Program-made: the position numbers and the translations under genes
Assembly (NCBI GenBank): GCA_038087875.1
Contig: CM075987.1
Location: 21,950,001 to 22,014,000 of the forward strand
Direction of reading: 5' to 3'
Length of the DNA stretch: 64,000 bases
Origin: Malacoraja senta
Taxonomy: Eukaryota
Notes under the pieces: model-generated
The model's database searches: none
What the model saw: the letters and a program-made list of their open reading frames with translations, nothing else
Told to the model about the DNA's origin: nothing
In this document: in pieces, positions 44,081 through 63,317 of the stretch
Layout: each line of letters begins with the position of its first letter
How positions within the stretch are numbered: the first letter of the stretch is position 1

Positions 44081-44296
44081 TCAGAGTTTTGAGCTGTTTG
44101 TCTGCACAAGCAGATCTCTCATATCAACTAGCGCCTGCTCCAAATAGTGGGCAAGTTTAGCTGCATTGGTCTCTGCACAACTGTTGAACGCAGACACTGA
44201 GAAGTTCATGTGGTTGTCCATGGGGTTGTAGCATACACCATAACCGTCCGGCACGACTGGCCCAAAGCACATCAGGCAATCTGTCTTAGCAGGAAC
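44081..44296 (-). CDS. CRAT: CRAT exon 14 (coding part; C-terminal SKL peroxisomal targeting signal)
   Basis: VPAKTDCLMCFGPVVPDGYGVCYNPMDNHMNFSVSAFNSCAETNAAKLAHYLEQALVDMRDLLVQTNSSKL*. Confidence 0.96.
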   Translation of the reverse strand, partial: VPAKTDCLMCFGPVVPDGYGVCYNPMDNHMNFSVSAFNSCAETNAAKLAHYLEQALVDMRDLLVQTNSSKL

Positions 44297-47200
44297 CTAC
44301 AGAATACACAAGAGTCAATTTAAACTTGTTTTTACCTCCTCAAAACAGAGCCAGCTGCAGAGAGTTAAACTGTAGGGCATTAGGCTTCCTTTGCTACTGT
44401 GAGCAGCATACACTTATGCAATATACCTTGCTGGCTGCCATTTCACCTATTTCTTTTTGCAGTTTATCCACATCTCCTCCAGGCTGAAGACCAATAATGT
44501 GCTGATCTCTCCAACTATTGGTTCAGGATAAAATAGTGCCATAACCTCCAATCAACCCCAGCCTACTGCTGCGAATGGGGACATGAACCACTGTGGTTTC
44601 TACATGGTCAGATAGTGTAAGTTTAAAATACCATAACCTAATCATTAACAGGAACTACAACACTTTCAAATCCAAAGCATCATAAAGGCATAGAATAGTA
44701 CAGCACAACATGCCCATCGCCCCCCCCCCCCCATGCCTGTACACTTATCTACCTGCACATGTCCCATATTCCTATCCCCAAATCTTTTAAATCCCATTAA
44801 CATATCTGCTTCAACCATCGCATCAGGCACTCATCCTCCCGTGTGTTTAAAAAAAGCTTGCCCTGCGTATCCATCTCCTTTTAAACTTTTCCCTCTTGCC
44901 TGTACAATCTCGACATTCCAGGAAAACCTAATAGGAAAATTGAGTCAGCACTCAGTCTTCCTAGTTCATGAACTTACATTGGCTCCACTGTATTGGCTTT
45001 CATCAGTCCCTGTCCCCATCTGTTTTGCTTTTTGATTTCATCCCACCCACCTTAATCCTCACAGATGCTTAACTAGCCTCTGATGCAATGCCTACGCATC
45101 TATTTATCAGTGACAGTGCATCCAAGCCCCTACAGTTAAACACGACTGAAACCTCTCCTCTAACTATTCCTTTGGTCCCAAGGCATAATTGAAAATCATG
45201 GCCAATGTTTTTATTATACCTCAACCAACATCACAAAAGCAAATCACCCACTCATTCATTCCATCGTTGTAATACTGGAAATTCAACAGCCAACATGTGC
45301 ACAAGCAAGTCCAATAAAAGCAGTGACTATATTTCAAAAACTACTTAAGTGCCAGTAAAACACTCTGGGGCATCCCAAGGTTGCATATATAAACATGTTC
45401 AATCTCCCTTTCATTTTCCATTCAGACTGATGGAAAATGAGGGACAATTGTATTTGAGCGATGCAGTATTCTCCCTGAATACACCTGGCTACACACTGAA
45501 ATCACATTTGGGATTCATATGCAATTTTGAAATTTTCTGAATAAGGAGGAAACTGAAGGTCTCACCTGACTGGTTGATAAATTGAAATGAAAGGCAACAG
45601 CATAGGATGTGTCCATGAAGATCTCTGGGATTCGAACCAGATCCTCAATGGCCTGATGTTTAAGGCCAAATAGATGTCTATCAATTGCTTGGCCTCGGAT
45701 TGCCTAAAAACAAAATTATTATCTATCAATACACAATGCTACTTTGTACCACTGCCAGTCTACCTGTACCCATGTACCATGAAGAAGGTCTGAAGAAAGA
45801 TCTCGACCCGAAATGTCACCCATTCCTTCTCTCCAGAGATGCTGCCTGACCTTCAGCAATTTATGTCTATCTCATGTACCATCCCTTGTATGTCCACCAC
45901 CCACCAAAATTACCGCTCCTGCCAGAACTTCACATCTCTGTCATCACCATCCCTCTACACTAGCATTGCTAATAAGCATGTCATCGCTACCCCCTTTCTC
46001 ATTCCCATCCTGTACAACACGACATACTCAAACTGCAGCAATTAATGCCCCCCCCCAACTGTTTTACATTATTTTCCATCCACAACACTAGCACGCTCTA
46101 CCCAGCAATGACGGGATTGATTGCAACTGCTCCCTGAACAAAAGGATCGGTTAAGAGTACTTTGTTTCGTAATTAATGATTTTCAAACAAGGATAGGGGT
46201 ATTTGGGAACAAAGTGGTGAAGACAGTTATTCCACTTACCAGGTCTGTGTAGGCTCTATGTGCTTGGACAGCTTGCCTCATCAGGGCCACTTTATTTTGC
46301 TTCTACCGGTAAATAAAAAATCAAAACATGGTCAAAAATGCACAATGATGAAACGATTAATTCACAGAACCCAAAGTCGATTAATCAGCAATTGAGGGAG
46401 GGAGGAAAAAACAGTTTCAGTTTGCCCATCAAGTCAGCTTGTGGATATAGAGCACGGTTTTGGAATGCGTTGACAAGACAACAGGGAAATGAAGAGATGC
46501 CAGAAAAGCATGGATCAGTTTTTCAAAGGAGTGCTTTAAGGGAGAGATAGATGGAAAAGTTTAGGGATTAATCTGACAATTTAGAATCCAGATAATTGAA
46601 AGCATAACCTATCAATGCTGAAGTGATGGAAATTGGAAAGTGCACGAAAAAAAACAAGAACTGAATGATTACAGAACTTTTAAGTGGTAATGAACATAAT
46701 GGGTCTGTGGTGTAGCAGGGCTATGAAAATAGTCATAAAGCCATCATAGAAACTGGCCCTTTGGCCAAACTTGTCCATGCTGACCATGACGTCCCATCTA
46801 AGCTAGTCCAATTTGTGCATATTTGAACCATATCCTTCAAACATTTTCCTATCCATGTATCTATCCATTTAAAGGTTTTACTATACCCATCTCAATTACC
46901 TCCTCTGGAAGGTCATTCCATACACCCACCACCTTGTGAATGAAAAAATTGCCCAAGATTTCTATTATTTTTTCCCTATCACCTTAAACTCATGTCACTT
47001 GATTCTTGATTCTCCTATCTTGGGTAAAACACTATTCACCCTACCAATTTCCCTCATGATTTTATACACTTCTATAAGATCACCCCTTAGCCTCATGTGC
47101 TCCAAGGAATGAAGTCCTAACTTGCCCAATCTCCCTAGAGCTCAAGCCGTCAAGTCCTGGCAATATCCCTATCACTGCACTACGTCTAGCTTAATGACAT

Positions 47201-50200: not shown

Positions 50201-53200
50201 TGAATCATGAATTTTGTGAGTTTCCCAGCAGTTTTACGGTAAATCACATGATATCAAGAAACAGCTGAGAGCATTGTACACAACAAAGGTGTTGGGACCA
50301 GAATATCTCCCAGTTGAAGCACTGAAGATTTACACTTTAGAATTAGCCACAGACTTAGCCAAACCTTTCCAGTACTCGTATCTAACCAACAATATTAAAA
50401 TTAAATGGAGGGGGGGTTGATTTTAAGTTTTTGTTGTCATTTAGAACATCTACTCAAACCACATTTAAGTAGGCATTATGGCCAAAGGGCCTGTTCTTAT
50501 ACTGTACTGATCTATGTTAATACATATTGTGTTTATATATATCATCCAATGTTTTCTTTGGATTAGTCAATATGATTTGATACATTAAACCCTTGTTTTA
50601 ATGGTTCCTTTATAACGGATTTGGGTTATAGTGGACGGACCTGTTGATGCCATCCCGACTCGCATGGTCTCCCCAGTCCCCGACCCCAACACAAATGCTC
50701 AGTTTAATTTTGCCAGGACTACTTAGGTCCACAAAAGTTGGCCTAAATAAATTGAATTCTTGAGATAAATGAAAGTGAGTGATCATTTCTGATACCAAGG
50801 CAGCATTTGACCAAATGACATCAAGCAACCCTAGTAAAACTAAAATTAATAGGCATCCATGAAAAGCACATAGGAAGATGTTTGTGATTGTTGACTTCAG
50901 TCATCCAAAGACACTGAAATTTCACAGGGTAACAACTTATGCCCACCCAGCTTTAGCTAATTCATCAGTCACCTTCCTTCACAAGAAAGGGGAATGTTCA
51001 ATTCCATTTGCATCTCCTCAACAAACTATGAAGTCCATGCCTGCCTGCATCAATACCTGGACAACACCCTGACATGGGCCCTGATATGGAAGTAATAGTG
51101 TTGCAAAAGAGCATTTAAAAATGCAATATTGCTGTGATTTGGAATGGGATATCTGAAAGGGTGTTGGAAGCAGATTCAAAAGTTACATTTAAATGGAAAT
51201 GCATTCAAAATAGAAAAATTGTTTTTTCAAAGAGTCAGCACAGGCATGATGGAGCAAATGGCTTATTTTATGCTGCGTAAATCTACCCTTGGATATACTA
51301 GGAACATTGAGCACAGTATCTAAGATGATGTCTCTCACCTGTAATAAGCCAATTGCAAAGCAATCTGGATATAGGCATCTGGGCTCAACCTCTGGGACTT
51401 CACAAAAACTTTCCCAAAATGCTCGAACACAAAACATTTTATATCCATATCATGCACCATCCTGGATAGAAAGGAAAATAAGGATGAATCTCTTCACTTG
51501 CAAGATAACCCAGCACTTTCTCTAACCTATCCCATACTGTTAAATAATATCAGAATGCAGTTATATCTGCTGGTTCTCCCAACAGTAAGCAGCACGTTGG
51601 CGCAGCGGTAGAATTGCTTACTTACCGCGCCATAGGCCCAGGTTCAATTCTGACTATGGGTGCTGTCTGTACAGTTTGTACATTCTCCTGTGACTATGTG
51701 GGTTTTCCAGGTACTCCGGTTTCCTCCCACATTCTAAAGACCTACAGGTTTGTAGGTCAATTGGTCGGCGTGGACTCAGTGGGCCGAAGGGCCTGTTTCA
51801 GCGTTGTAGCTCTAAACTAAATAGGGGCAGCACTTCATCTGCAAGNNNNNNNNNNNNNNNNNNNNNNNNNNNNNNNNNNNNNNNNNNNNNNNNNNNNNNN
51901 NNNNNNNNNNNNNNNNNNNNNNNNNNNNNNNNNNNNNNNNNNNNNNNNNNNNNNNNNNNNNNNNNNNNNNNNNNNNNNNNNNNNNNNNNNNNNNNNNNNN
52001 NNNNNNNNNNNNNNNNNNNNNNNNNNNNNNNNNNNNNNNNNNNNNGACACCAAGAATCAGACAATGAACACGGAGAGGCTGCTGGGAGCCGAAGCTCAGA
52101 TACAAATACCCAAAAGGAGTTGAACAAGAGGAAGAAGGGAAAAAGATACCAAGTAGAGGGATGATTTTGTTTGGGGTGGGATGGAAAAAGGACAAGAGGG
52201 GTAAGGTCTTTTGGGCTACTATCTGATACCTAAAAGCCAGGTATGAGCTTCCCCGATGTTCTCTGTATCTTTTCTCCCTTCTAACCTCAACCCTTCCACC
52301 CCCTTCTCTCTCAACCCTCCAGGGCTGGTACTTCCAAAGCAATGAAGGAGTTCCGAGAACAATAAAAACATCTTTAGTGAGCGAAAAACATCTCAAAGCT
52401 CAAAATAAATGGAAAGACAATAATCCATGGGGCAGCTGTGAAGTTCCCCACATGAGACATACCATTCTGAAAGACACTTGCAGCAACCCACAGCAACAAG
52501 CTTCTCATATATAGCTACAGCCCCAGATCAATAAAGGAGATGCGTGGGGAAAGTTTATTTTAAAACAGATAGTGATAGATGCACGGTGCCAGGAATTGTT
52601 GGTACAGGCAGATATTAAAGTACAATTTAAAAGGCTTTTGGATAGGCACACGGACATGCAGGGAATAGAGGGGAATGGAACTATTCCAGACAGAAGAGAT
52701 TAGTTTAACGGCATCATGTTCAGCATGGACATTATGGACTGAAGGGCCGTTTAGTTTAGTGATACAGTGCGGAAACAGGCCCTTCGGCCCACCGGGTCCG
52801 TGCCAACCAGCGATCCCCGCACATTAACACTATCCTACACACACTAGGGACAATTTTTATATTTACCAAGCCAATTAACCTACAAACTTGTACGTCTTTG
52901 GAGTGTGGGAGGAAACCGAAGATCACGGAGAAAATCCACGCAGGTCACGGGGAGAACGTACAAACTTCGTACAGACAGCACCCGTAGTCGGGATCGTACC
53001 TGGGTCTCTGGCGCTGCATTCGCTGTAAGGCAGCAACTCTACCGCTGCGCCACCGTGACCGCTGTATTGTTCTATGTTTGATGTTTTAATACTCTCTCAT
53101 ACCCTCCCAGGTATGCAAATACAGCCATACATATAACTTTCAAAAAATAAACATGGTCATAAGTGATAGGAGTAGAATTAGGCCATTCGGCCCATCAAGT

Positions 53201-56200
53201 CTACTCTGCCATTCAATCATGGCAGATTTTTCTCTCCCTCCTAACCCCATTATCCTGCCTTCTCTCCATAACCTCAATTGATGTCAATTATATTTGAACA
53301 AAGTGGCCCGATTACTGCCCACTAGTCTGCTTACCCCCTCACACACCTGCAGGGTTTTGTCAAACCACCTGTTGCCGCTGTTCCAGCGACTACCTCCGCC
53401 CATGCAACATCTGAGCCGCAACGCGACTCATGTAGAGTTCATCAGACACCTTTGGCACTGGAGCATCCAGGCAGATGGTGAAGATGCACCTCTGGATGCA
53501 TTTCACAGACTCCTTGTTCACCTTATCTGGAGAGGGCCAGAGAGAAGCAAACAGAAACAATGAGCAGTTCCAAAATTCTTCATGGTAGCATTAGAGAAAA
53601 TTAAATTTGCTTACACAAATATATTCCATTACCACAAAATATAATGGTGAGCTATCACTGGATTCAAGTGCATAGCTCATTTAAATCAAGGAGACTAGGA
53701 GAGTTCCCAGTTGTTTCAAACCCTTACACATAAGTGTGGGCATTATTGCAAGACCAACATGTTCTCCAGAGATGCTGCCAGACCCGTTCCTAATGTTCAT
53801 AATGCCTTGAGTATTAGAAAGGCGCTATAATAATCCCATCCATTATTATTATTATTATAACTGCCCTTAGAAGATGGTGTTAAGCCACCTATTTAAACAC
53901 CTGCGTTATACGTGGTGTCAGATATGGGATTCGAGGATTCTGACCCTGCAAAGTGGGAATGGTGGTATATTTCCAAGTGAGGATGGCATCTGAGCTGGAG
54001 AAGAACTTGGAGGTGATGAACAGAATCAGTTCCCATATACCAACCTCCATTGGCTTTCTCACCAGTAAAAATTGTGGGTTTGGAGAGGTGGCATCCAACA
54101 ATCTTTTAATAATAACAACAATCTTTTACTAATAACCAATGCAGGTTGCTGCAGTGCAAACTGTACCCATTGTGAAACCAGTACAATAGAGTGAGGGTTT
54201 AAGGCCAGGATTTTAGGTGATGGTAGAGGTTTTGCCTTGAATGATCTTGAGTTCCCGAGTCGCTCCTCTCGCTTATTTGTCATGTTCTGGAGACAAACCT
54301 TTGATCAGTGTGTTGTAAGCATTTGCCCAGCTGTTTCGATGACCAGTTGAAAGGATTCCAATTGGCTCTTTGTTTGTCTGGAGTGAAGAATGCCAGATCT
54401 TCTCCAATTGCATGGTAAAGTTGGTCCACAGTTAGGGGACTGCCATCACTGTTGTACACAAAGAGCTCAAAGAACTGCAAAACACAGATGGACATCATTA
54501 ACTGCAAGTATGGACTAACAGTCACAGAGCAGAACAGGCCAAGTACTGTCAAAGTGCCTTTGAGTTATAGAGTCAGAGTTATGCAGCACAGAAAAAGGCT
54601 CTATGGCTCATCTCGCCCATTCTGACCAAGACGCCCCATCTAAAATAGTCCTATTTAATCGAGTTGACCCATAACCTGTAATCCCTTCTTATCCATGTTT
54701 TGTAAAGTGGTTGCCTCCTTTCCATTACTGCATCAGTGACTAATTAAAACTACATTGTTGAATGCAAAGACCCATCTCAGGATGATATGAAATAGCAGAT
54801 AGAAATTGGTTAGTGATTTGTGAACAACCAGGTCACAGGGCCACCAGGACACAAGGCGATTTAGATCAACACTGGAATTGCAATGAGGAAATACCTGTGT
54901 TGCCTCAGGAGAGGAACATGGGGAAAGAAAACTAAGAATCGTTCAGCACATACAAGTGGTTGCAAGAAACCTACCTGAAAGTTGTGCACAATTGTTACGT
55001 GGGTTGGTTTTTTAGTTAAGGAATAGTTGGCAAAAGAATCACTTTTGGAACCTGGAATCCTGCATGATGATAGAATCTGGTAATATTGGTTCATGCAGAG
55101 AGGGCTCCCTCCTAAACTCTCCACAGGAAGAGTCTCACTGAGAACAGAAACAAGAGGGAAAGTCTTTACTTATTAAATATTAGACAGCACAGAGCTTCAA
55201 ATGTACAAAATTCTCACTTTGGTTTAAAGACCTCAAAACCTGTAATAGTTATACATCACGGAAACAGGCCCTTTGACCCAACTCGTTACCCTTGACCAAG
55301 TTGTTTATCTAAGGCCAGGAAGCGAGCGGGCAAGATCATCTCCGACTCCTCTCACCCTGGCCACAAACTCTTTGAATCACTTCCCTCTGGAAGGCGACTC
55401 CGGACTGTCAAAGCTGCCACAGCCAGTCATAAACACAGTTTTTATCCACGAGTAGTTGCTCTACTCAACAGCCAAAAATCTGTAGCCTCCCTTTGATCTG
55501 GTATTTTGTTGGTTCACATGCTTGATCAATGGTGTTTTATCATTAATGTTTTATCAGGGCTGCCAACTCTCACACTTTCAGCGTGAGAATCACGCCTTGG
55601 AGCCAATTCTCACGCCTCACGCTGATGACCGAGTTCTCACGCTGAGTTCAGACCCTGCGCAGTTTGTCCCTTTGCGCCATGTGCCAGCGCGATCTGTCCG
55701 GTCTGGGGAAGATCGTCGGTTGAAGGCTGTGAGTGACGTCGCGTTTCTTCTCTTCTCTTTTGGTCGAATGTGCAGCTGCCGACAACATGAAGCAGCTGGA
55801 GATGGAACTAACCCGGTGAATCAGTTGTAAAACATGGGGGGGGGGGGGGAGTAAGGACCAATTGGGCCCAAGGAAGAGAGAGGGGAGAGGGGAGAGAGAG
55901 GGGGTGGAGTGGGAGGAGAGAGAGGGGGAAGAGAGAGAGAGGGGTGGTAAAAGAGAGAGGGAAAGAGGGAGAGAAAGGGGAAGAGAAACGGGGGAAAGGA
56001 AGAGAGGAGGGCAAAGTGAAAGAGGAGATAGAAACAGAGGAGAAAGAGAGGGTAGAGGGGGCAAGGGGGGGAGTGAGGTGGGAGGGAGAAATGGGGGAGA
56101 GATGGGGGGAGAGGGGAGAGGGGGAGAAAGAGGGGAGAGAGTGGATAGAGAGCAAGAGGGGGTGAGAGAGAGAGGGAGATAGAGGGGGAGATAGAGGGGA

Positions 56201-59200
56201 GATAGAGAAGGAGGGGAAAGAGAGGAGAGAGTGAGAGGGAGAAGAGGGGGAGAGAGGAGAGAGAGAGGGGGAGAGAGAGTTAGGGAAAGACAGGGGAGAG
56301 GGAGTTAGGGGGAAAGAGAAGGGGAGAGGAGAGAGAGAGGGTGAGAGGGGAGGGTGGAGAGAGAGAGAGGCGAGAGAGAGGGGGGGAGTGAGGTGGTAGG
56401 GAGAGAGGGGGAAGAGAGAGAGAGAGGAGAGAGGAGGCGAGAGAGAGGGGGAGAGAGAATGGAGAGAGGGGAAGAAAGGAGAGAGGGGGGAGAGAAGAGA
56501 GGGGGGAGAGAAGAGAGGAGAGAGAGGGAGAGGGAGGGGAGATGGGGAAGAGAGAGGGGGTGAGAGGAGAGAGTGGAAGAGGGGAGAGCGAGAGGGGGAG
56601 GGAGAGAGAGGTGGGAGGGAGAGAGAGTGGAGAGGGAGAGAGAGGAGAGAGAAGTGGGGGGGGAGAGAGAGAGAGAGAGATAGGTGATATAGAGGCAAGG
56701 CTGCCAACTCCCATGCATTGAGCATGAGAATCACGCATTTTGCCAAATTCTCACGCTGATCACAAATTTCTCACGCTCTGTCGTGAGAAATTCTATGATC
56801 AACGAAAATTTCAAAACTAATATCAACTGCATGGGCCACGGGAGTTGGAAGCAGAAGCAGCGGCGGGGACAGATGCGGACGGGGAGTGGGGGCTGGCGAG
56901 TGTTTGCTGGGCTGGCGAGTCGCTCACTGCAACTCCGGCCATGGAGCAGCCTCAGTGCAAGAGTCCCGGGCCGTCGGCGGCGTCGGAAGCGTTGCGCCGC
57001 TGCTGTGAAAGTCTCTGTGCCAAATTCGCCCTGGTGACCAGCATGGATCAGGCTGCGGCTCAGTGCATCCTGGAGGACAACCAATGGCTGCTGGAAGTAA
57101 GTACCAAGCACTGGGTAGAAACGGTGGAAGATAGTGGACTTCAAATGGGAGTGGTTGGGGAAAGCACCCTGCTTGCCTGCTAGATTTCCACTTACTGTAA
57201 CTGCAGGAAAAATGTTCCCAATGTTGGGGGGAGTTCAGAACCAGGGGTCACAGTTGAAGAATAAAGGGTAGGCCAGTTAGGACTGTGATGAAGACAAACT
57301 TTCTTCACCAGAGAGTTGTGAATCAGTGGAATTCTCTGCCACAGAAGGCAGTGCAGGCCAATTCACTGGATGTTTTTCAGAGAGAGTTACATTTAGTTCT
57401 TGGGGCTATTGAAATCAAGGGATATGGGGAAAAAACCCGGAAAGAGGTACTGATTTTAGATGAATAGCCGTGATCATATTGAATGGCAGTGCTGGCTCGA
57501 AAAGCCGAATGGCCTGTTCCTGCACCTATTTTCTATGCTTGAGTATATGGCAATAAAAACTCAATCACTTGATTTTGAAGCATTCATGCATGGTGGAGGT
57601 ATAATGTAGTCATAGAGTGATACAATGTGAAAACAGGCCCTTCGGCCCAACTTGCCCACACCCACCAACATGTCCCCAGCTACACTACCTGCTTTTGGTC
57701 CATACCTCCAAACCTGCCCTATCCATGTATCAGTCTAACTGTTTCTTAAATGTTGGGATGGTCCCTGCCTCAACTACCTCCTCTGGCAGCTTGTTCCATA
57801 CACCCACCACCCTTTGTGTGGAATAAGTTACCCCTTAAAAAGTTACCTCTTAAAAATAATTAATACAAAAAACATTGAAATCATACTTCTACATTGCACT
57901 AAAACATGATTTTAATACATCAAATTTCAAAAAGTCCCTACCCTGGGAGGGGGGACACCCCACTTCCACACCCTCTCCCCACCCGGTTTCCTCCACTCCC
58001 TCACCGGGTACCCCCAAAGCCAGTGATCAGTGATCGCTCAGCCTCCCCACTTTAAAAAACGCTCCGCGATCCCTGGTTCAGATGGAGAACACTGCCAGAT
58101 GTGAGCGGGGAACTGAGGCCAGTTGTCCATGATGTCTGGATCCCCAATGCTCAGCGCTTCATGTTTCGGAGTCGGCTAATGTTATTGATTTGTAATTAGT
58201 TGACAAAACCTTAATTTATGAATCTGGAATATCCAGGGGGATGGGATAAGTGTAATATTAAAATGACATGCAAGGTGTCAGGCTGTCTGTCACAACATAC
58301 AGCCCCGGTTATAACCCATTATTTCCTTCAGTTAAATATTGGGAAGGTAGCACTATTGTCATTTGCCACTCAACTATTATGTTTGTTTACCTCACTGACT
58401 ATTTCTAACCCCCCCCCCCCCCCATAAATTCCTTTGACAGGTTGAATAGAAATGTCCCCAATCTCGTTGTTTTATTAATTCAATACGTAGATGAACATCC
58501 TCAAGGAGTGTAATCAGATGGAAACCGATTCAGATGCGATATTTAAGAGCTTGTTCAAAGAAGGGGAATATTTTAAAGGAGTGACGGAGATACATGCAGG
58601 GGAATGTGTGAGGAGGTTATTATTTTCTTTAGTTTTAGCTTGAACCAGGACATCTGAACATTCAAAGTTTAATATAGTAATTGTACTGATACTGACCCCA
58701 ACCAACCACGTAATGAACATCATCCATTCCGGAGGTTTGACTTTTATGATGCCATTTAAACTTCACTTGGATTTCAATCATTTCAATGTAAAAGTAACTG
58801 GGAATGGGGAGCATTGGAACAAAAATTTGCCCTCGGTACATATTAACTGTAATATAATAATGTATGCATGTTGGTAGGTGCAATCAAAACAAAGATATTT
58901 TTATCATTGTTGTGTTATGGATACCACAGAAAATATTATGTACTCTCAAGATCACATTTAATAGAATAATATTGCTTAAATATATAGTTATTGGACTTTG
59001 CATTTTGGAAAAGTCCCAGCTGAGAGGAAGACAGCAAAATACTGAAAATATTGGGGGTGAAAATGACTTCAGGACAGTTTGTTAGGAAAATGAAAGAAAT
59101 GGTAACAGAATACATACGGCTGAGTGAGTATAATTTTATGGATGATAAATTGTGTTCAACCAATTGATGACTTCTTTGACAAAGTAACTAGCATGTTAGA

Positions 59201-62200
59201 TAACAAGGAAGCCAATGGATGTAGCAAATTTTGTTATAGATGATTTGGTCTGTGAAGTGCCCCATAAAAGATTACTGCATTAGATAAGCACCTATGGACT
59301 TGAACGTAATAGGTTAAGTCCAGGGGGTCAGATATGGGGCTTTATGTGAGGGCCAGATATATTGTCAGTGCAGAGGGGCTAGGAGCAAGGCCAAGTGTGC
59401 ATCCAGAGTCAAGGTCTGGAATAGTACTAGATGTGCAGTCAAAGCTGGGACCAGGGGTGTGTTCAGCACTGGGAACCTAAGCAGATAAGCAGCTATGATC
59501 AGGGTAGAATAGGGGGGGGGGGGCAGGTGTAAGGCTGGACTCAGGGTCAGGAATGAGAGAATGTCAGGGTCAGGAATGAGAGAAGGTATGCAAATGGAGT
59601 CAGGGTCAGGAGTAGTACCCGGTGTGCAGTGAGACCCAGGTTGGTCAACATGGGCCGTGTTTGATTATAATCTGATTTCCATACATGAATATACTAAGAT
59701 CAATCATGTGCTGCACGTGTTGATCAGAGCCTGGGCTCTACTGTGGAATGTAATTTAGTCTAACCTTATTCATAGCTAATCCAATTTAAAGCATATATAT
59801 TGCATTCAAGTGTAAGTTAAAAAGACTCGCTACAGTATGCATCATATTGTAGCGAGTGCACCCTCCTCCCCTCCCCCTCCCACACCCCCCCCGGTCGCTA
59901 TGCTCCCTCGGGCTTGGTCTCTCGCAATTTCTCACTCCCAACTCTCACCCAATGTTGGCAGCCCTGGTTTTATTATTATTAATATTTCGTGTTTTCCGAG
60001 TCATTCGTAACTGTCACTGTATGTCATGTTGTTACTTGTGGGTGGAGCACCAAGGCAAATTCCTTGTATGTGAATACTTGGCCAATAAACTTACTTACTT
60101 AAGCTAGACCCATTTGACTGCATTTGTAAGACTGTAATGCCCTCCGTCCTCACAATTTCCGAGATCTTTGCACCCCAGGCTCTTATTCACACACAAATTG
60201 GCAGTCTGCCTTCCCTGGGCCAGGTTTTAGAATGACCTCCCAAAATACTTTTCCAACTTTCCTCATTTTAAAATGCTTCTAAACTCCTACTTGCGTCTCC
60301 TGCCACTCTTCTTAATATCCCCACTCGGAGCTCGGGGTCAATTTTTAAATCAGCTTTATGGACTGTTTGGAATATTTTATAAGGCAAAATGAAATTACAT
60401 CAATAATCTACATTTTCTATTACCAGTTTTCCCATATTCATCTTAATGTGGTGATGAATTAACATTTGCACTTACTTGTCAATCATAGATTTAAAATCCA
60501 GCACACCAGCTATTAATTTAGCAGAAAATCTGGAAGAGAACACAGGCAGAGATTGGGACCGAATATGAATGAATGGCAGTGTGCTCACTGCTTTACACTG
60601 CCTAGAGTCGTTTTATTTCAGCTAAAGTCACATCATCAAAGAATTTACATTTCATTACCTCAGGATACCTCAAAGTATTCTATGTGGTATTTTTGAATTA
60701 TTTTCATAGTTGTAATGCAGGAAAATTCATAAGCCTTCTATGGAAGTAGAGGTGTTGGTGCGCTTTATCGGCCATAGCTTTGATGTGGTTGATCATCTTC
60801 AAAACAACTCTGTGGTATCTAGGCTGAAGAAGGGTCTCGACCCGAAATGTCACCCATTCCTTCTCTCCAGAGATGCTGCCTGTCCCGCTGAGTTACTCCA
60901 GCTTTTTGTGTCTATCTGTGGTATCTTTCTTTTATTTATTCATTCAAAGAATATACATGTCACTGGCCATGTTAGCATTTACTGTCCATCCATAATTGTC
61001 CTCGATTTATGGAGACAGTTAAGAGTCAACCACGTTTCTAGGTCTATCTAGCCTTGCATGTCAGCAAGAATGGGCAAGTTTGAACCAAATGAGGTTTTAA
61101 CAACAACCAATAGTCAGATTAACTTAATTTTTCTAGTTCCAAGTTTATTTAATTACTTGAATTAAATTGCCAAGCTGATATAGTGGGATTCAAACCCACT
61201 GCTATTTATCCAAAGTCCAGATCTCTGGGTGCTCATCTAGTGCCTTAGTCCCCATGCTACCACACCACTTTTCCCACTTAAGAGAAAGGGGGACAACATC
61301 CATTGTTTAATCCAAACCCCATCAACTCATATGTTGAGTTTTTTTTGTAAGGCAAGGCCTCTGTTGAGGAATGACCATACTGCATATGGTCCAATCTGAA
61401 GAGGGTCCCGACCCAATGCTTTATCTAGGCATGTTCTCCAGAGATGCTGCCTGAGCTGCTGAGAGTCCCAGAATGCAATTCAGTGCTGGAATGGGATACT
61501 ACTTTCTCAATCAGTCACAAAAGCAATCCACTGGTGCAGTAAGACGAGGCTGCTTGGGGGGGGGGGGAGAGAGAAAGGAGGGGGTGGTGGTTGGAAGGCA
61601 GCATGATGTCAATGAGGGGCTCAGGTAAAAACAGCTGGTTGAGCTGGCTTGGAAATGAATAAGTTGAATGCTAGGTTGGTATTAGAATACAAGGATTGTT
61701 AGGTCTGCTTGGATTTCATCATTATTTCCCACCCCCAAATTCATCACTCAATAAAACAGCGCTCCCCACCTCTGCTACCCCTTCAATATAATATTTTTAG
61801 ATCTAGTAAAGAAACATTTGATTTGGAAAAAAACTCTTCCTTAAACCCCCATCATTGTGATTTTCTCTTTGACATTTTCTCTGCACTCAGACCCAGAAGA
61901 TTCGACTGAATCCATTGTGTTCCCCAGGCCTCTGGTGCACAAGCTCAACCTGGTCCTTGCACAAGGGTCTGCCATAAAAAAGAGCAGACAGAATTCAGAG
62001 CCATCTCCAGTCTGGAACATTGCTTCCATGGCAATCCTGGGACACTGCACACTTCTACCTGTGTGACAGAGATTAGGATTCCAGCCATGCCTCCACAACA
62101 TCTACTGGTTTTACAGGAAAATTGGCAAACCAACACAAGGCAAGACAGCCAATTTTCCCATCAGATGTAGAAAATTAAACACCATAGGCGATCATCAGCA

Positions 62201-63317
62201 ATTCTGCACCCATTCACTTTACATGGTAATTGGTCAGTCATGTTATAGTCTTACAGCGTGGAAACAGGCCCTTCGACCCAACTTGCCCACACCGACCAAC
62301 ATGTCCCATCTACACTGTTCCCACCTGCCAGCGTTTGGCCCATATCCCTCTAAACCTGTTTGATCCATGTACCTGTCTAATTCTTTCTTAAATGTTGCAA
62401 TAGTCCCAGCCTCAACTACCTCCTCTGGCAGCTCGTTCCATACACACCACCTTTTGTGTGAAAAGATACCCCTCAGATTCCTATTAAATCTTTCCCCCTT
62501 CACCTTAAACCCATGTCCTCTGGTTCTCGATTCCCCTACTGTACGTCTACCCGATCTATTCCTCTCATTATTTTATACATCTCTATAAGATCACACCTCA
62601 TCCTCCAGCACTCCAAGAAATAGAATCCCAGCCTGCTTAACCTCTCCCTATAGCTCAGGCCCTCGAGTCCTGGCAACATCCTTGTAAATCTTCTCCGTAC
62701 CCTTTCCAACTTGACATCTTCCCATAACATGGTACCCAGAACTGAACACCATACTCTAAACGTGGCCTCACCAACATCTTATATAGCTGCAACTTGACCT
62801 CCTTGTAATTTATGTGAGCCTGGCCTTTGCTTATCAACGTTATTGTCACACATGTTTTCTTGACATGCACTTTAATGCAAATGTCTGTTGCCCCCTTCCT
62901 AACTCACACCAAACCCCATTCACTCTCACAGACCTACAGTGGCCTTGTTCCATACATTGCTTTTTTTTTTTTTTTTTTAATTCTCACCCTTTTCTAAGCC
63001 TTCATTATGGCCTTCTCCAACAGTACAACTTTTCAAGGTTGCTGTGTTTCATTGATTGCAACTTCTTGCAAATCCCCATTTTTTAATGACTCCACCCGAT
63101 TCCACAGAATCAGACGTAGGAAGTTTTCTCCCATGTAAACCACCATTAGGATTCAAGTCAGGATTGCTGCTTTCACAAATGCATTGCCACACCATTACCT
63201 CAGCTGTCCTTGACGATCATGATAATCCTGTTTTGGCAACAGCACACCGGGACTGGAATGAATGACCACAGGGAGCCTGTTTTCTAGGTAGGCTGTCCTC
63301 AGCCACCACTCGCTCAG
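44081..63317 (-). CDS. CRAT: Carnitine O-acetyltransferase, partial spliced gene (exons 3-7 and 10-14 in window; exons 8-9 not visible; 5' exons beyond the window end)
   Basis: Exons translate to LSEWWLRTAYLENRLPVVIHSSPG..., CMNQYYQILSSCRIPG..., NRWFDKTLQ, SPDAYIQIALQLAYYR, ATYESASLRMF, DRHLFGLK, LSTSQ/VPAKTDCLMCFGPVVPDGYGVCYN...SSKL*. Introns are GT-AG. Met is present at the acyl-pocket position (DCLMCFGP), as in CrAT rather than CrOT/CPT. Confidence 0.96.
45566..45703 (-). CDS. CRAT: CRAT exon 13
   Basis: AIRGQAIDRHLFGLKHQAIEDLVRIPEIFMDTSYAVAFHFNLSTSQ; 138 nt; STS carnitine-binding motif. Confidence 0.95.
46240..46302 (-). CDS. CRAT: CRAT exon 12
   Basis: KQNKVALMRQAVQAHRAYTDL; 63 nt; AG/GTAAG boundaries. 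Confidence 0.93.
46735..47400 (-). mobile_element. Degraded CR1 3' fragment
   Basis: Similar to the CR1 copy at 62240-62805. Confidence 0.85.
48630..48965 (+). mobile_element. Rex1/Babar-like LINE 3' end
   Basis: HPGHTLISPLPSGRRYRNLKTATSRFRNSFFPTAIRLLN and a GACAATAAA tail. Confidence 0.75.
49810..49944 (-). CDS. CRAT: CRAT exon 11 (-1 frameshift near 49890)
   Basis: IYGEQRATYESASLRMFN, then after a shift RTDTIRSASVESSVFVRAMDNPQEQ; 135 nt where 136 is needed. Confidence 0.92.
51339..51461 (-). CDS. CRAT: CRAT exon 10
   Basis: MVHDMDIKCFVFEHFGKVFVKSQRLSPDAYIQIALQLAYYR; 123 nt. Confidence 0.94.
51588..51821 (+). mobile_element. tRNA-derived V-SINE (HE1-like), internally deleted
   Basis: Box A TGGCGCAGCGG, box B GGTTCAATTC, V-domain GGTTTCCTCCCACATTCTAAAGAC, CR1-like tail. 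Confidence 0.85.
51846..52045. other. Assembly gap (200 N)
   Basis: Run of N. Confidence 1.
52750..53062 (-). mobile_element. Full-length tRNA-derived V-SINE (HE1-like) inserted in a CR1 tail
   Basis: Box A/B head, V-domain GGTTTCCTCCCACACTCCAAAGAC, CR1-derived 3' end with (CTAAA)n. Confidence 0.9.
53347..53526 (-). CDS. CRAT: CRAT exon 7 (+1 frameshift near 53400)
   Basis: KVNKESVKCIQRCIFTICLDAPVPKVSDELYMSRVAAQMLH, then after a shift GGGSRWNSGNRWFDKTLQ; 180 nt where 179 is needed. Confidence 0.92.
54299..54474 (-). CDS. CRAT: CRAT exon 6 (+1 frameshift near 54414)
   Basis: FFELFVYNSDGSPLTVDQLY, then after a shift MQLEKIWHSSLQTNKEPIGILSTGHRNSWANAYNTLIK; 176 nt where 175 is needed. Confidence 0.92.
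54975..55137 (-). CDS. CRAT: CRAT exon 5
   Basis: ETLPVESLGGSPLCMNQYYQILSSCRIPGSKSDSFANYSLTKKPTHVTIVHNFQ; AG/GT boundaries. Confidence 0.95.
55314..55554 (+). mobile_element. Rex1/Babar-like LINE 3' fragment, left part (continues at 59967-60100)
   Basis: RAGKIISDSSHPGHKLFESLPSGRRLRTVKAAT..; the right part ends AATAAAC(TTAC)n. Confidence 0.75.
55872..56682. repeat. About 800-bp GA-rich (homopurine) low-complexity tract
   Basis: Almost only G and A on the + strand. Confidence 0.95.
56941..57096 (+). pseudogene. TDP2: Captured first coding exon of a TDP2-like gene (N-terminal UBA-like region) inside a DNA transposon
   Basis: GCCATGG Kozak at 56941. MEQPQCKSPGPSAASEALRRCCESLCAKFALVTSMDQAAAQCILEDNQWLLE resembles TDP2 RRLLCVEFASVASCDAAVAQCFLAENDWEME. 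It is followed directly by a phase-0 GTAAGT donor. No downstream TDP2 exons are seen. Confidence 0.8.
57200..57540 (+). mobile_element. CR1 3' tail inside the DNA transposon (a second, - strand CR1 tail is at about 57608-57830)
   Basis: Similar to the CR1 3' ends at 13250-13590 and 28590-28830. Confidence 0.88.
60476..60529 (-). CDS. CRAT: CRAT exon 4
   Basis: FSAKLIAGVLDFKSMID; 54 nt; AG/GTAAG boundaries. Confidence 0.94.
60821..60914 (+). mobile_element. 94-bp Penelope-derived unit with a hammerhead-like core and a 12-bp TSD
   Basis: TCTGTGGTATCT at 60809-60820 and 60915-60926. Confidence 0.85.
62240..62805 (-). mobile_element. CR1 LINE 3' fragment
   Basis: LYKMLVRPRLEYGVQFW...[15 protein letters not shown]...[11 protein letters not shown]. 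Confidence 0.92.
63199..63317 (-). CDS. CRAT: CRAT exon 3
   Basis: LSEWWLRTAYLENRLPVVIHSSPGVLLPKQDYHDRQGQLR; 119 nt; AG/GT boundaries. Confidence 0.95.

Follow-up and report, generated by a model that had tools for sequence, protein, structure and literature searches.

The first exon of TDP2 carried by a high-copy terminal-inverted-repeat transposon family in the cartilaginous fish Malacoraja senta

In plants, the capture of host gene fragments by transposons with terminal inverted repeats (TIRs) and the mass dispersal of those fragments are well documented, and in vertebrates the main documented route of gene-fragment capture is that of the Helitrons. Here we describe an element of the cartilaginous fish Malacoraja senta which holds, between perfect TIRs, the beginning of the host DNA-repair gene TDP2 (tyrosyl-DNA phosphodiesterase 2). 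It lies in a stretch of 64,000 nucleotides (assembly GCA_038087875.1, contig CM075987.1, forward-strand positions 21,950,001 to 22,014,000), hereafter the window, whose first letter is position 1 of all coordinates given without a locus label. The observation is confirmed as real and well supported. No article on a TDP2-carrying transposon, on vertebrate Pack-type capture or on transduplication in fish could be recognised by title or abstract opening. Dispersal of the TDP2 leader, start codon, UBA-like exon and donor to some 1,000 or more places by a TIR family would clearly exemplify this process in a vertebrate, by a mechanism different from that of Helitrons.

The closest known parallel is a bat Helitron that amplified the promoter and first exon of NUBPL. 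HelibatN3 of Myotis lucifugus is described as carrying the NUBPL 5' end, and captured 5' gene ends as those that reach the highest copy numbers (PMC4224331). Helitrons move by a rolling-circle mechanism without TIRs or target-site duplications (TSDs), whereas the element described here has 13-bp TIRs and 6-7-bp duplications; moreover, its host is a cartilaginous fish, its gene is TDP2, and the upstream capture extends at most ~100-180 bp before the ATG, short of a demonstrated complete promoter. The Pack-TYPE transposons of plants (Pack-MULE, Pack-CACTA and others) are likewise non-autonomous TIR elements which acquired host fragments as DNA and are moved in trans, and they are described as a plant phenomenon (PMC8903248). 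Many of them combine pieces of several genes, whereas a single host fragment was identified in the present element, and this TDP2 cargo has an unusually high copy number. Short TIRs combined with subterminal repeats, as found here, are also described for non-autonomous partners within the P superfamily, namely BuT5 with the Drosophila P element and zebrafish Pdre2. The entry for Pdre2 gives a 13-bp TIR, CATACCTGTCAAC, and an 8-bp TSD (PMC10983969), and this TIR shares 9 of 13 positions with that of our element; for BuT5, two TSD lengths 1 bp apart are mentioned within one family (PMC3698922).

The element and its TDP2 fragment

The element occupies positions 55555-59966 (4,412 bp). Its first 13 nucleotides, CAGGGCTGCCAAC at 55555-55567 on the plus strand, recur as an exact reverse complement at 59954-59966 (13 of 13 positions), and a second, internal TIR-like copy starts at 56696, the stretch after that position being 79% identical to 55555-55615 over 61 nt with the same subterminal motifs. 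The ATG at 56941 is embedded in GCCATGG and begins 52 open codons that end in ...NQWLLE at 57096, directly before GTAAGT at 57097-57102. The GC content of 56830-57100 is 0.64 and its CpG observed/expected ratio 0.74, against 0.22-0.37 in the remaining element and the neighbouring intron. A Pfam scan of the 26 open reading frames (ORFs) of at least 45 residues found no transposase in the element. The original prediction, made from the letters alone, had described precisely such a 4,412-bp segment, with perfect 13-bp TIRs, a 7-bp TSD, a CpG-rich block holding the start, the 52 codons and the donor, and no recognisable transposase, and the coordinates, the base composition and the ORF scan agree with it throughout. 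The internal TIR-like copy, the purine-rich tract and the 24 bp missing from the captured exon had escaped that prediction. The features of the element and its TSDs are as follows:

55548..55554, unstranded: left TSD, GTTTTAT, present as a single GTTTTAT in paralogous copies of the host repeat
55555..55567, plus strand: 5' TIR, CAGGGCTGCCAAC, 13 nt, 100% complementary to the 3' end
55555..55849, plus strand: 5' module 'unit A', comprising the TIR, subterminal TCTCAC(GC)/GTGAGA repeats and then a CpG-rich stretch of ~200 bp
55850..56695, plus strand: purine-rich (GA) low-complexity tract of ~840 bp, also in family copies
56696..56838, plus strand: 'unit B', an internal TIR-like copy, CAAGGCTGCCAAC (12/13; TIR-like part 56696-56708), with subterminal repeats
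56839..56940, plus strand: captured TDP2 5' flank and 5' untranslated region, CpG-rich; similarity to the parental locus on C19 starts here
56941..57096, plus strand: captured TDP2 exon 1, ATG and 52 codons, UBA-like N-terminal region; frame, protein, structure and parental-locus matches
57097..57854, plus strand: captured part of TDP2 intron 1, with the GTAAGT donor first; aligned to the parental locus
57202-57540: 3' fragment of a CR1-like long interspersed nuclear element (LINE) in the captured intron, with similarity to a reverse transcriptase tail; present in the parental intron too
57607-57835: second interspersed repeat in the captured intron; present in the parental intron too, in the same order
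57855..59953, plus strand: family-specific internal 3' region of ~2.1 kb, without recognisable coding capacity or similarity to the parental locus
59954..59966, minus strand: 3' TIR, GTTGGCAGCCCTG on the plus strand, with two TCTCAC motifs just before it
59967..59973, unstranded: right TSD, GTTTTAT, as the left copy

The 52-residue frame is TDP2-like over its whole length. The best named match, TDP2 of the little skate (P0003, 360 residues), is 78% identical over all 52 residues (E 2e-16) and aligns through its residues 1-54; the structure of the human TDP2 UBA domain (PDB 6q00) was matched at E 2e-4, and the Pfam family UBA_4 scored 15.8 bits, under its cut-off of 21.8. Both the skate protein and the human structure uphold the assignment of this frame to the N-terminal UBA-like region of TDP2 that had been made beforehand. 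Word-index searches of the protein collections with the frame returned two matches among longer proteins and three among those of similar length, and an exhaustive HMMER search returned three; all of them were unnamed short read-through ORFs or skate TDP2, and neither type of search found an annotated chimeric protein with a TDP2-like exon.

The parental gene is located elsewhere in the same genome. A search with P0003 placed the TDP2 exons on the minus strand at C19:4674572-4712516, where residues 85-143, 209-270 and 256-360 are matched at 83-92% and exon 1 is matched at 4712310-4712516; the same search also gave about a hundred exon-1-only matches outside the C19 TDP2 loci. The C19 exon-1 locus aligns to window positions 56839-57389 (80%) and 57404-57854 (82%), and no alignment to the rest of the element was obtained outside 56839-57854. 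The shared block thus consists of ~100 bp upstream of the ATG, exon 1, the donor and ~760 bp of intron 1, and it includes two older repeats, the tail of the CR1-like LINE and the second repeat, in the same order and orientation in element and parental intron. Since the flank, the donor and ~760 bp of intron with its collinear repeats were retained, the fragment was captured as DNA and not as a retrocopy, which is also what the original prediction had proposed.

Compared with the TDP2 gene, exon 1 stands alone in the element. No other TDP2 exon was detected in the window, as tblastn with full-length P0003 gives residues 1-62 only (next best E 2.1), and the catalytic endonuclease/exonuclease/phosphatase domain (Pfam PF03372 in P0003) is absent from the element; a parental TDP2 elsewhere and no downstream exons on the plus strand here had both been expected. 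Relative to the present parental exon, the captured exon is without 24 bp (8 codons, in frame). Two further TDP2-like loci were encountered. The first, at C19:4603402-4611049 on the same strand and ~65 kb from the full gene, matches residues 205-270 and 268-360 at 80-85% to the skate protein and is probably a tandem duplicate of TDP2. The second, at C4:78117580-78117930, shows a continuous match to residues 1-114 (54% identity, one TGA and two TAG stops) that crosses the end of exon 1, and is possibly a processed TDP2 pseudogene.

The element splits an interspersed repeat of ~360 bp with an (ACTT)n end, so that the sequence before insertion could be sought in paralogous copies of this host repeat in the same genome. 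Both copies examined have one uninterrupted GTTTTAT at the position of the element and run through ...cattaatGTTTTATtattattaat... into the sequence found after 59973 and then into the (ACTT)n tail. This clean paralogous empty site with a single GTTTTAT indicates that the element inserted as one unit with a 7-bp duplication, and the two copies bear out the earlier claim of a single insertion into a repeat.

Other parts of the element were also inspected for captured sequence. Unit A at 55644-55849 has a CpG observed/expected ratio of 0.82 and resembles a short leader exon with a GTGAGT donor, after which an intron-like stretch of ~47 bp ends in CAG and is followed by an ATG and GTGAAT. Unit A may represent a further captured 5' fragment, or else a leader belonging to an autonomous element, and no parent of it was found. 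A second captured gene was considered at the ORF 58644-58877, where the Pfam APG6/Beclin BARA match is weak (E 0.0025, 18 bits, cut-off 34). The same match reached 13-19 bits in five of six other copies, was missing in the remaining one and was judged to arise by chance; the BECN1 exons of this genome (C10:18112209-18114807) do not resemble the element in either DNA or protein comparison, and the APG6 reading was rejected.

Copy number, termini and age of the family

The exon, its donor junction and the 3' end of the element are all repeated throughout the 1.94-Gb assembly that was searched. The 351 bp around the exon gave 2,001 first-look candidates, and the 40 that were scored were without exception 92-100% identical over essentially their full length. 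The 38-nt 3' terminus had 1,558 matches at three mismatches or fewer (reversed control, 0), and a 30-nt word across the exon/donor junction had 958 at two or fewer (control, 0). On contig C1, 32 of the 79 perfect donor junctions listed have a correctly oriented, perfect 3' end no more than 10 kb away, a lower bound because perfect matches only were used, against a chance expectation of 0.085. The distances from donor to 3' end on this contig cluster at about 2.75-2.88 kb, the arrangement being as in the window element. A second cluster at ~1.05-1.25 kb corresponds to a shorter deletion subfamily (for example, donor at C1:152536876 and 3' end at 152535723) and implies that a derivative with a ~1.7-kb internal deletion was itself amplified. 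The family is on the order of 1,000-2,000 copies in size, with varied 6-7-bp target duplications.

Nineteen ten-kb loci around other copies, chosen as the best matches to the window element, were fetched. At ten of them both ends of the copy are present; these ten copies measure 4,057-5,988 bp and align collinearly to 55555-59966, with 84-94% identity. Together with the window element, these make up 11 full-length copies whose TSDs all differ: five are exact duplications of 7 bp, one is of 7 bp with one mismatch, and five are exact duplications of 6 bp. With its TIRs, copy-specific TSDs, paralogous empty site and lack of a transposase gene, the element has the features of a class II non-autonomous TIR transposon. 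That the exon would be multicopy, linked to these TIRs and flanked by distinct TSDs had been anticipated, and the 40 scored matches, the pairing on C1 and the 11 different duplications are in line with it.

Unit A forms the outer 5' module at 11 of the 19 loci, and at five others its place is taken by a duplicate of 56696-57024; the remaining three are 5'-truncated or fragmented. In copies L015 and L016 the similarity starts at a 56696-type TIR, with neither an outer 5' module nor a purine tract upstream, and for this reason the ancestral carrier was probably 56696-59966, to which the outer module was added later. In the subfamily of the window, the target duplication flanks the outer TIR and not the inner one.

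To estimate divergence, 24 copies of the window's subfamily were compared with their majority consensus. They differ from it by 3.8% in the 5' flank, 2.4% in the exon and 2.9% in the intron. Between the consensus and the parent, identity in these parts is 81%, 92% and 88.5%, respectively. The gap between consensus and parent is far above the divergence within the family, which places the capture long before the copying burst that was sampled. The donor reads GTAGGT in the parent and GTAAGT in the main subfamily, the divergent copies L014, L016 and L018 keeping GTAGGT; GTAAGT is the better match to the splice-donor consensus. In copies L014 and L018, parental sequence also continues on the upstream side for as much as ~80 bp more. 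Substitutions at codon positions 1, 2 and 3 amounted to 25/1243, 37/1245 and 29/1245, with no third-position excess, and 28 of the single-base codon changes were synonymous and 61 non-synonymous. The ATG, the open frame and the GT are all kept in 21 of 28 copies. On these comparisons of sequence, the TDP2 block appears to be a passenger with no clear sign of protein-level selection, although weak constraint is possible.

A 365-residue open frame around the exon copy at C1:306149496 was found to be a read-through of a stop-free purine-rich tract. Sequencing runs of four organisms, coded E-H, contain 0.52-0.69 of the sampled words of 56700-57900, and one of them may be the source species.

Candidate transposases

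The 6-7-bp duplication rules out hAT and most other superfamilies. For hAT, a TSD of about 8 bp is quoted (PMC3706591), and exact 8-bp duplications occur in none of the 11 full-length copies. Dada elements are described in the same account as having a 6-7-bp TSD and no TIRs and as inserting only into small RNA genes (PMC3706591), and they are ruled out by the clear TIRs and the 11 different, unrelated target sites. Helitrons are likewise ruled out by the presence of TIRs and target duplications. The P superfamily is credited with TSDs of 7-9 bp, two lengths of which can occur within one family (PMC3698922); compared with this range, our copies have 7 bp in six cases out of 11 and 6 bp in the other five. 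No P-superfamily transposase (THAP domain, P-type RNase H fold) is present in the element, and no autonomous member with the element TIRs was found.

A young P-element-like (THAP9-type) family is nevertheless abundant in the genome, all 150 scored candidates reaching 122-141 bits with a match to Pfam TNP-like_RNaseH_N. Its open frames extend up to 790 residues and its copies are 94-100% identical. In the one copy whose layout was examined (L045:3285-3500 joined to L044:1-5494, that is, C1:237358684-237364393), the gene has three exons: a THAP exon 1, a 1.3-kb intron, a THAP exon 2 and a main exon whose frame of 769 residues lies at L044:2002-4308. The boundaries of the P-like unit, ACCAAAGATACTAGAGG... 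and ...GTAAGCAGGGGTGGGGC, were set by two copies with different flanks and show no TIR of this kind. Within intron 1, a CT-rich tract of ~500 bp (L044:540-1050) precedes GTGTGAGAGTTGGCAACCCTG (L044:1043-1063), which lies about 250 bp upstream of exon 2 and is, with one mismatch, the reverse complement of the first 21 nt of our element; read on the opposite strand, the CT-rich tract is a purine-rich tract adjoining this end. The junction between GTGTGAGAGTTGGCAACCCTG and the tract is covered in 37 of the 40 best matches for this P-like region, the query locus included. Such an arrangement may have arisen through a nested insertion that became truncated, or the 5' module may have a common ancestry in both. 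Element and P-like unit share this 21-nt end and the purine-rich tract beside it, as well as a fragment of an unrelated interspersed repeat, and nothing more. The association of the two is far beyond chance; it makes the P superfamily a lead for an element whose superfamily is left unassigned, and is not a proof of mobilisation.

Many P-like copies are located on small unplaced contigs. Directly upstream of the P-like copy described above, L045:1077-3206 holds a 710-residue open fragment of a LINE ORF2 (reverse transcriptase; L1/Tx1-like by eye).

Origin, alternative readings and genomic setting

Taken together, the data make it very probable that 55555-59966 is a copy of a high-copy, non-autonomous, cut-and-paste TIR family whose ancestor acquired ~1 kb of TDP2 as DNA. 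Under this reading, the ancestor would have taken exon 1 complete with its splice donor, preceded by ~100 bp of 5' flank and 5' untranslated region and followed by ~760 bp of intron 1, from the host gene, in a single event well before the main burst of copying. The window copy itself inserted as one unit with a 7-bp staggered cut into a short interspersed repeat in an intron of CRAT, antisense to that gene. The element would have been moved in trans by a transposase binding the shared ends, for which the P-element-like (THAP9-type) family is a candidate. A host fragment stands between TIRs, its parent lies elsewhere (C19), and non-coding flank and intron were kept, all of which is Pack-type. 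The proposal of a Pack-TIR that disperses a TDP2 start exon with its donor, already put forward in the original prediction, is supported, and those tests of it that could have told against it all came out in its favour.

Several points weigh in the opposite direction. No autonomous partner with the ends of the element was found, and a TSD of 6-7 bp falls outside the documented values that were checked (7-9 bp for P; 8 bp for hAT and zebrafish Pdre2). The ends of the P-like unit (ACCAAAGATAC..., ...GCAGGGGTGGGGC) are not the TIRs of the element, and a target duplication was seen in neither of the two P-like copies examined. The second, partial TDP2 copy on C19, whose exon 1 was not located, may be the donor paralogue instead. 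Copies were picked as the best matches to the window, so that the figures for divergence and intactness are biased to its subfamily. Finally, the synonymous share of codon changes is 28/89 = 0.31 against 0.21 under uniform mutation, a difference that transition bias could explain, and the exon has diverged slightly less than the sequence on either side; both give weak room for constraint.

The slightly lower divergence of the exon, its integrity in 21 of 28 copies and its position only 143 bp inside the (internal) TIR might suggest that it is native to a transposon gene, that is, that the protein of an autonomous relative starts with this exon and the present copies are internal-deletion derivatives; no such relative was found whose gene structure could speak against this. 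We consider this origin improbable. Outside the exon, the similarity to host TDP2 takes in ~760 bp of intron as well as ~100 bp of 5' flank and covers two nested repeats in the same order. The same UBA region is part of human TDP2 (PDB 6q00), which shows the exon to be an ancestral part of the host gene. In addition, the codon positions show no third-position excess, and the only abundant transposase family found, the P-like one, starts with a THAP exon. Even if this alternative were true, the exon would be of host origin.

Less probable still is that two neighbouring elements, 55555-56695 and 56696-59966, were joined by accident, in which case the inner alone would be the true TDP2 carrier. 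The internal TIR-like copy at 56696, the existence of two alternative outer 5' modules and the copies L015 and L016, whose similarity begins at the inner TIR without outer 5' module or GA tract, all fit such a history. However, the TSD flanks the outer TIR in the window copy and in ten others, so that the composite itself transposes in the window subfamily, and this alternative refines the capture of TDP2 by a TIR family rather than opposing it.

The frame, the Kozak-like ATG, the donor and the CpG-rich leader do resemble a real first exon, and the sequence could in principle be a true paralogue of TDP2, or the 5' end of that gene copied by segmental duplication, with TIR-like ends that are coincidental or derive from unrelated flanking elements. 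This is hardly credible in view of the absence of any further TDP2 exon in the window, of the linkage of these termini to near-identical copies that number about a thousand or more, of a different target duplication for each copy and of the clean paralogous empty site. Equally hard to credit is a processed, RNA-level TDP2 retrocopy that landed inside the transposon, for, even with a possible processed pseudogene elsewhere (C4:78117580-78117930), the element retains the donor together with ~760 bp of intron 1 in parental order and has nothing from exon 2 onward.

With regard to function, any role of the family beyond selfish spread is putative. Each intronic copy in sense orientation would bring an ATG and a consensus GT donor behind a CpG-rich leader, and could start chimeric transcripts. 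We might speculate further, although we regard this as rather doubtful, that a still-active P-like (THAP9-type) transposase mobilises the Pack-type element and that ~1,000 TDP2 cassettes act as alternative first exons. If so, UBA-domain fusions or antisense transcripts could be expected at many host genes, so that the bat Helitron with NUBPL would have its vertebrate equivalent among TIR elements, and the shift of the donor from GTAGGT to GTAAGT in the main subfamily would be more than chance. The family offers a concrete set of loci for asking about new first exons, antisense promoters and UBA-fusion proteins. It also carries a warning for annotation, since spurious 'TDP2-like' first exons will be predicted by the hundred in gene annotation, and short read-through ORFs of this exon have already entered the public protein collections.

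The surroundings of the window copy are made up of the host repeat and of exons of CRAT:

55313..55554, plus strand: left half of the split host interspersed repeat; 368 first-look candidates
59967 to about 60085: right half of the host repeat, ending in (ACTT)n
54975..55148, minus strand: CRAT exon directly downstream, in the direction of the gene, of the element-bearing intron; Carn_acyltransf profile match
63153-63317, minus strand: CRAT exon upstream of the element-bearing intron; Carn_acyltransf profile match
51332-51469, 45557-45706 and 44135-44323, minus strand: further Carn_acyltransf exons from the profile search

Exons 54975-55148 and 63153-63317 match positions 117-174 and 61-109 of the Carn_acyltransf profile, respectively, and the former matches carnitine O-acetyltransferase structures (PDB 1nm8) at E 9e-24, compared with 3e-7 for octanoyltransferase. 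Because Carn_acyltransf exons on the minus strand flank the element on both sides, it lies within an intron of CRAT, with the TDP2 exon antisense to that gene; CRAT had already been named as the antisense host, and the flanking exons and the structural match bear this out. Over 55313-55554, 39 scored copies of the host repeat, the window's own left out, are 96-98% identical. Copies of this repeat recur at a spacing of ~11.36 kb at C2:156659912-156682870 (three) and C2:156834103-156845706 (two), which suggests that it is embedded there in a tandemly duplicated unit of ~11 kb.

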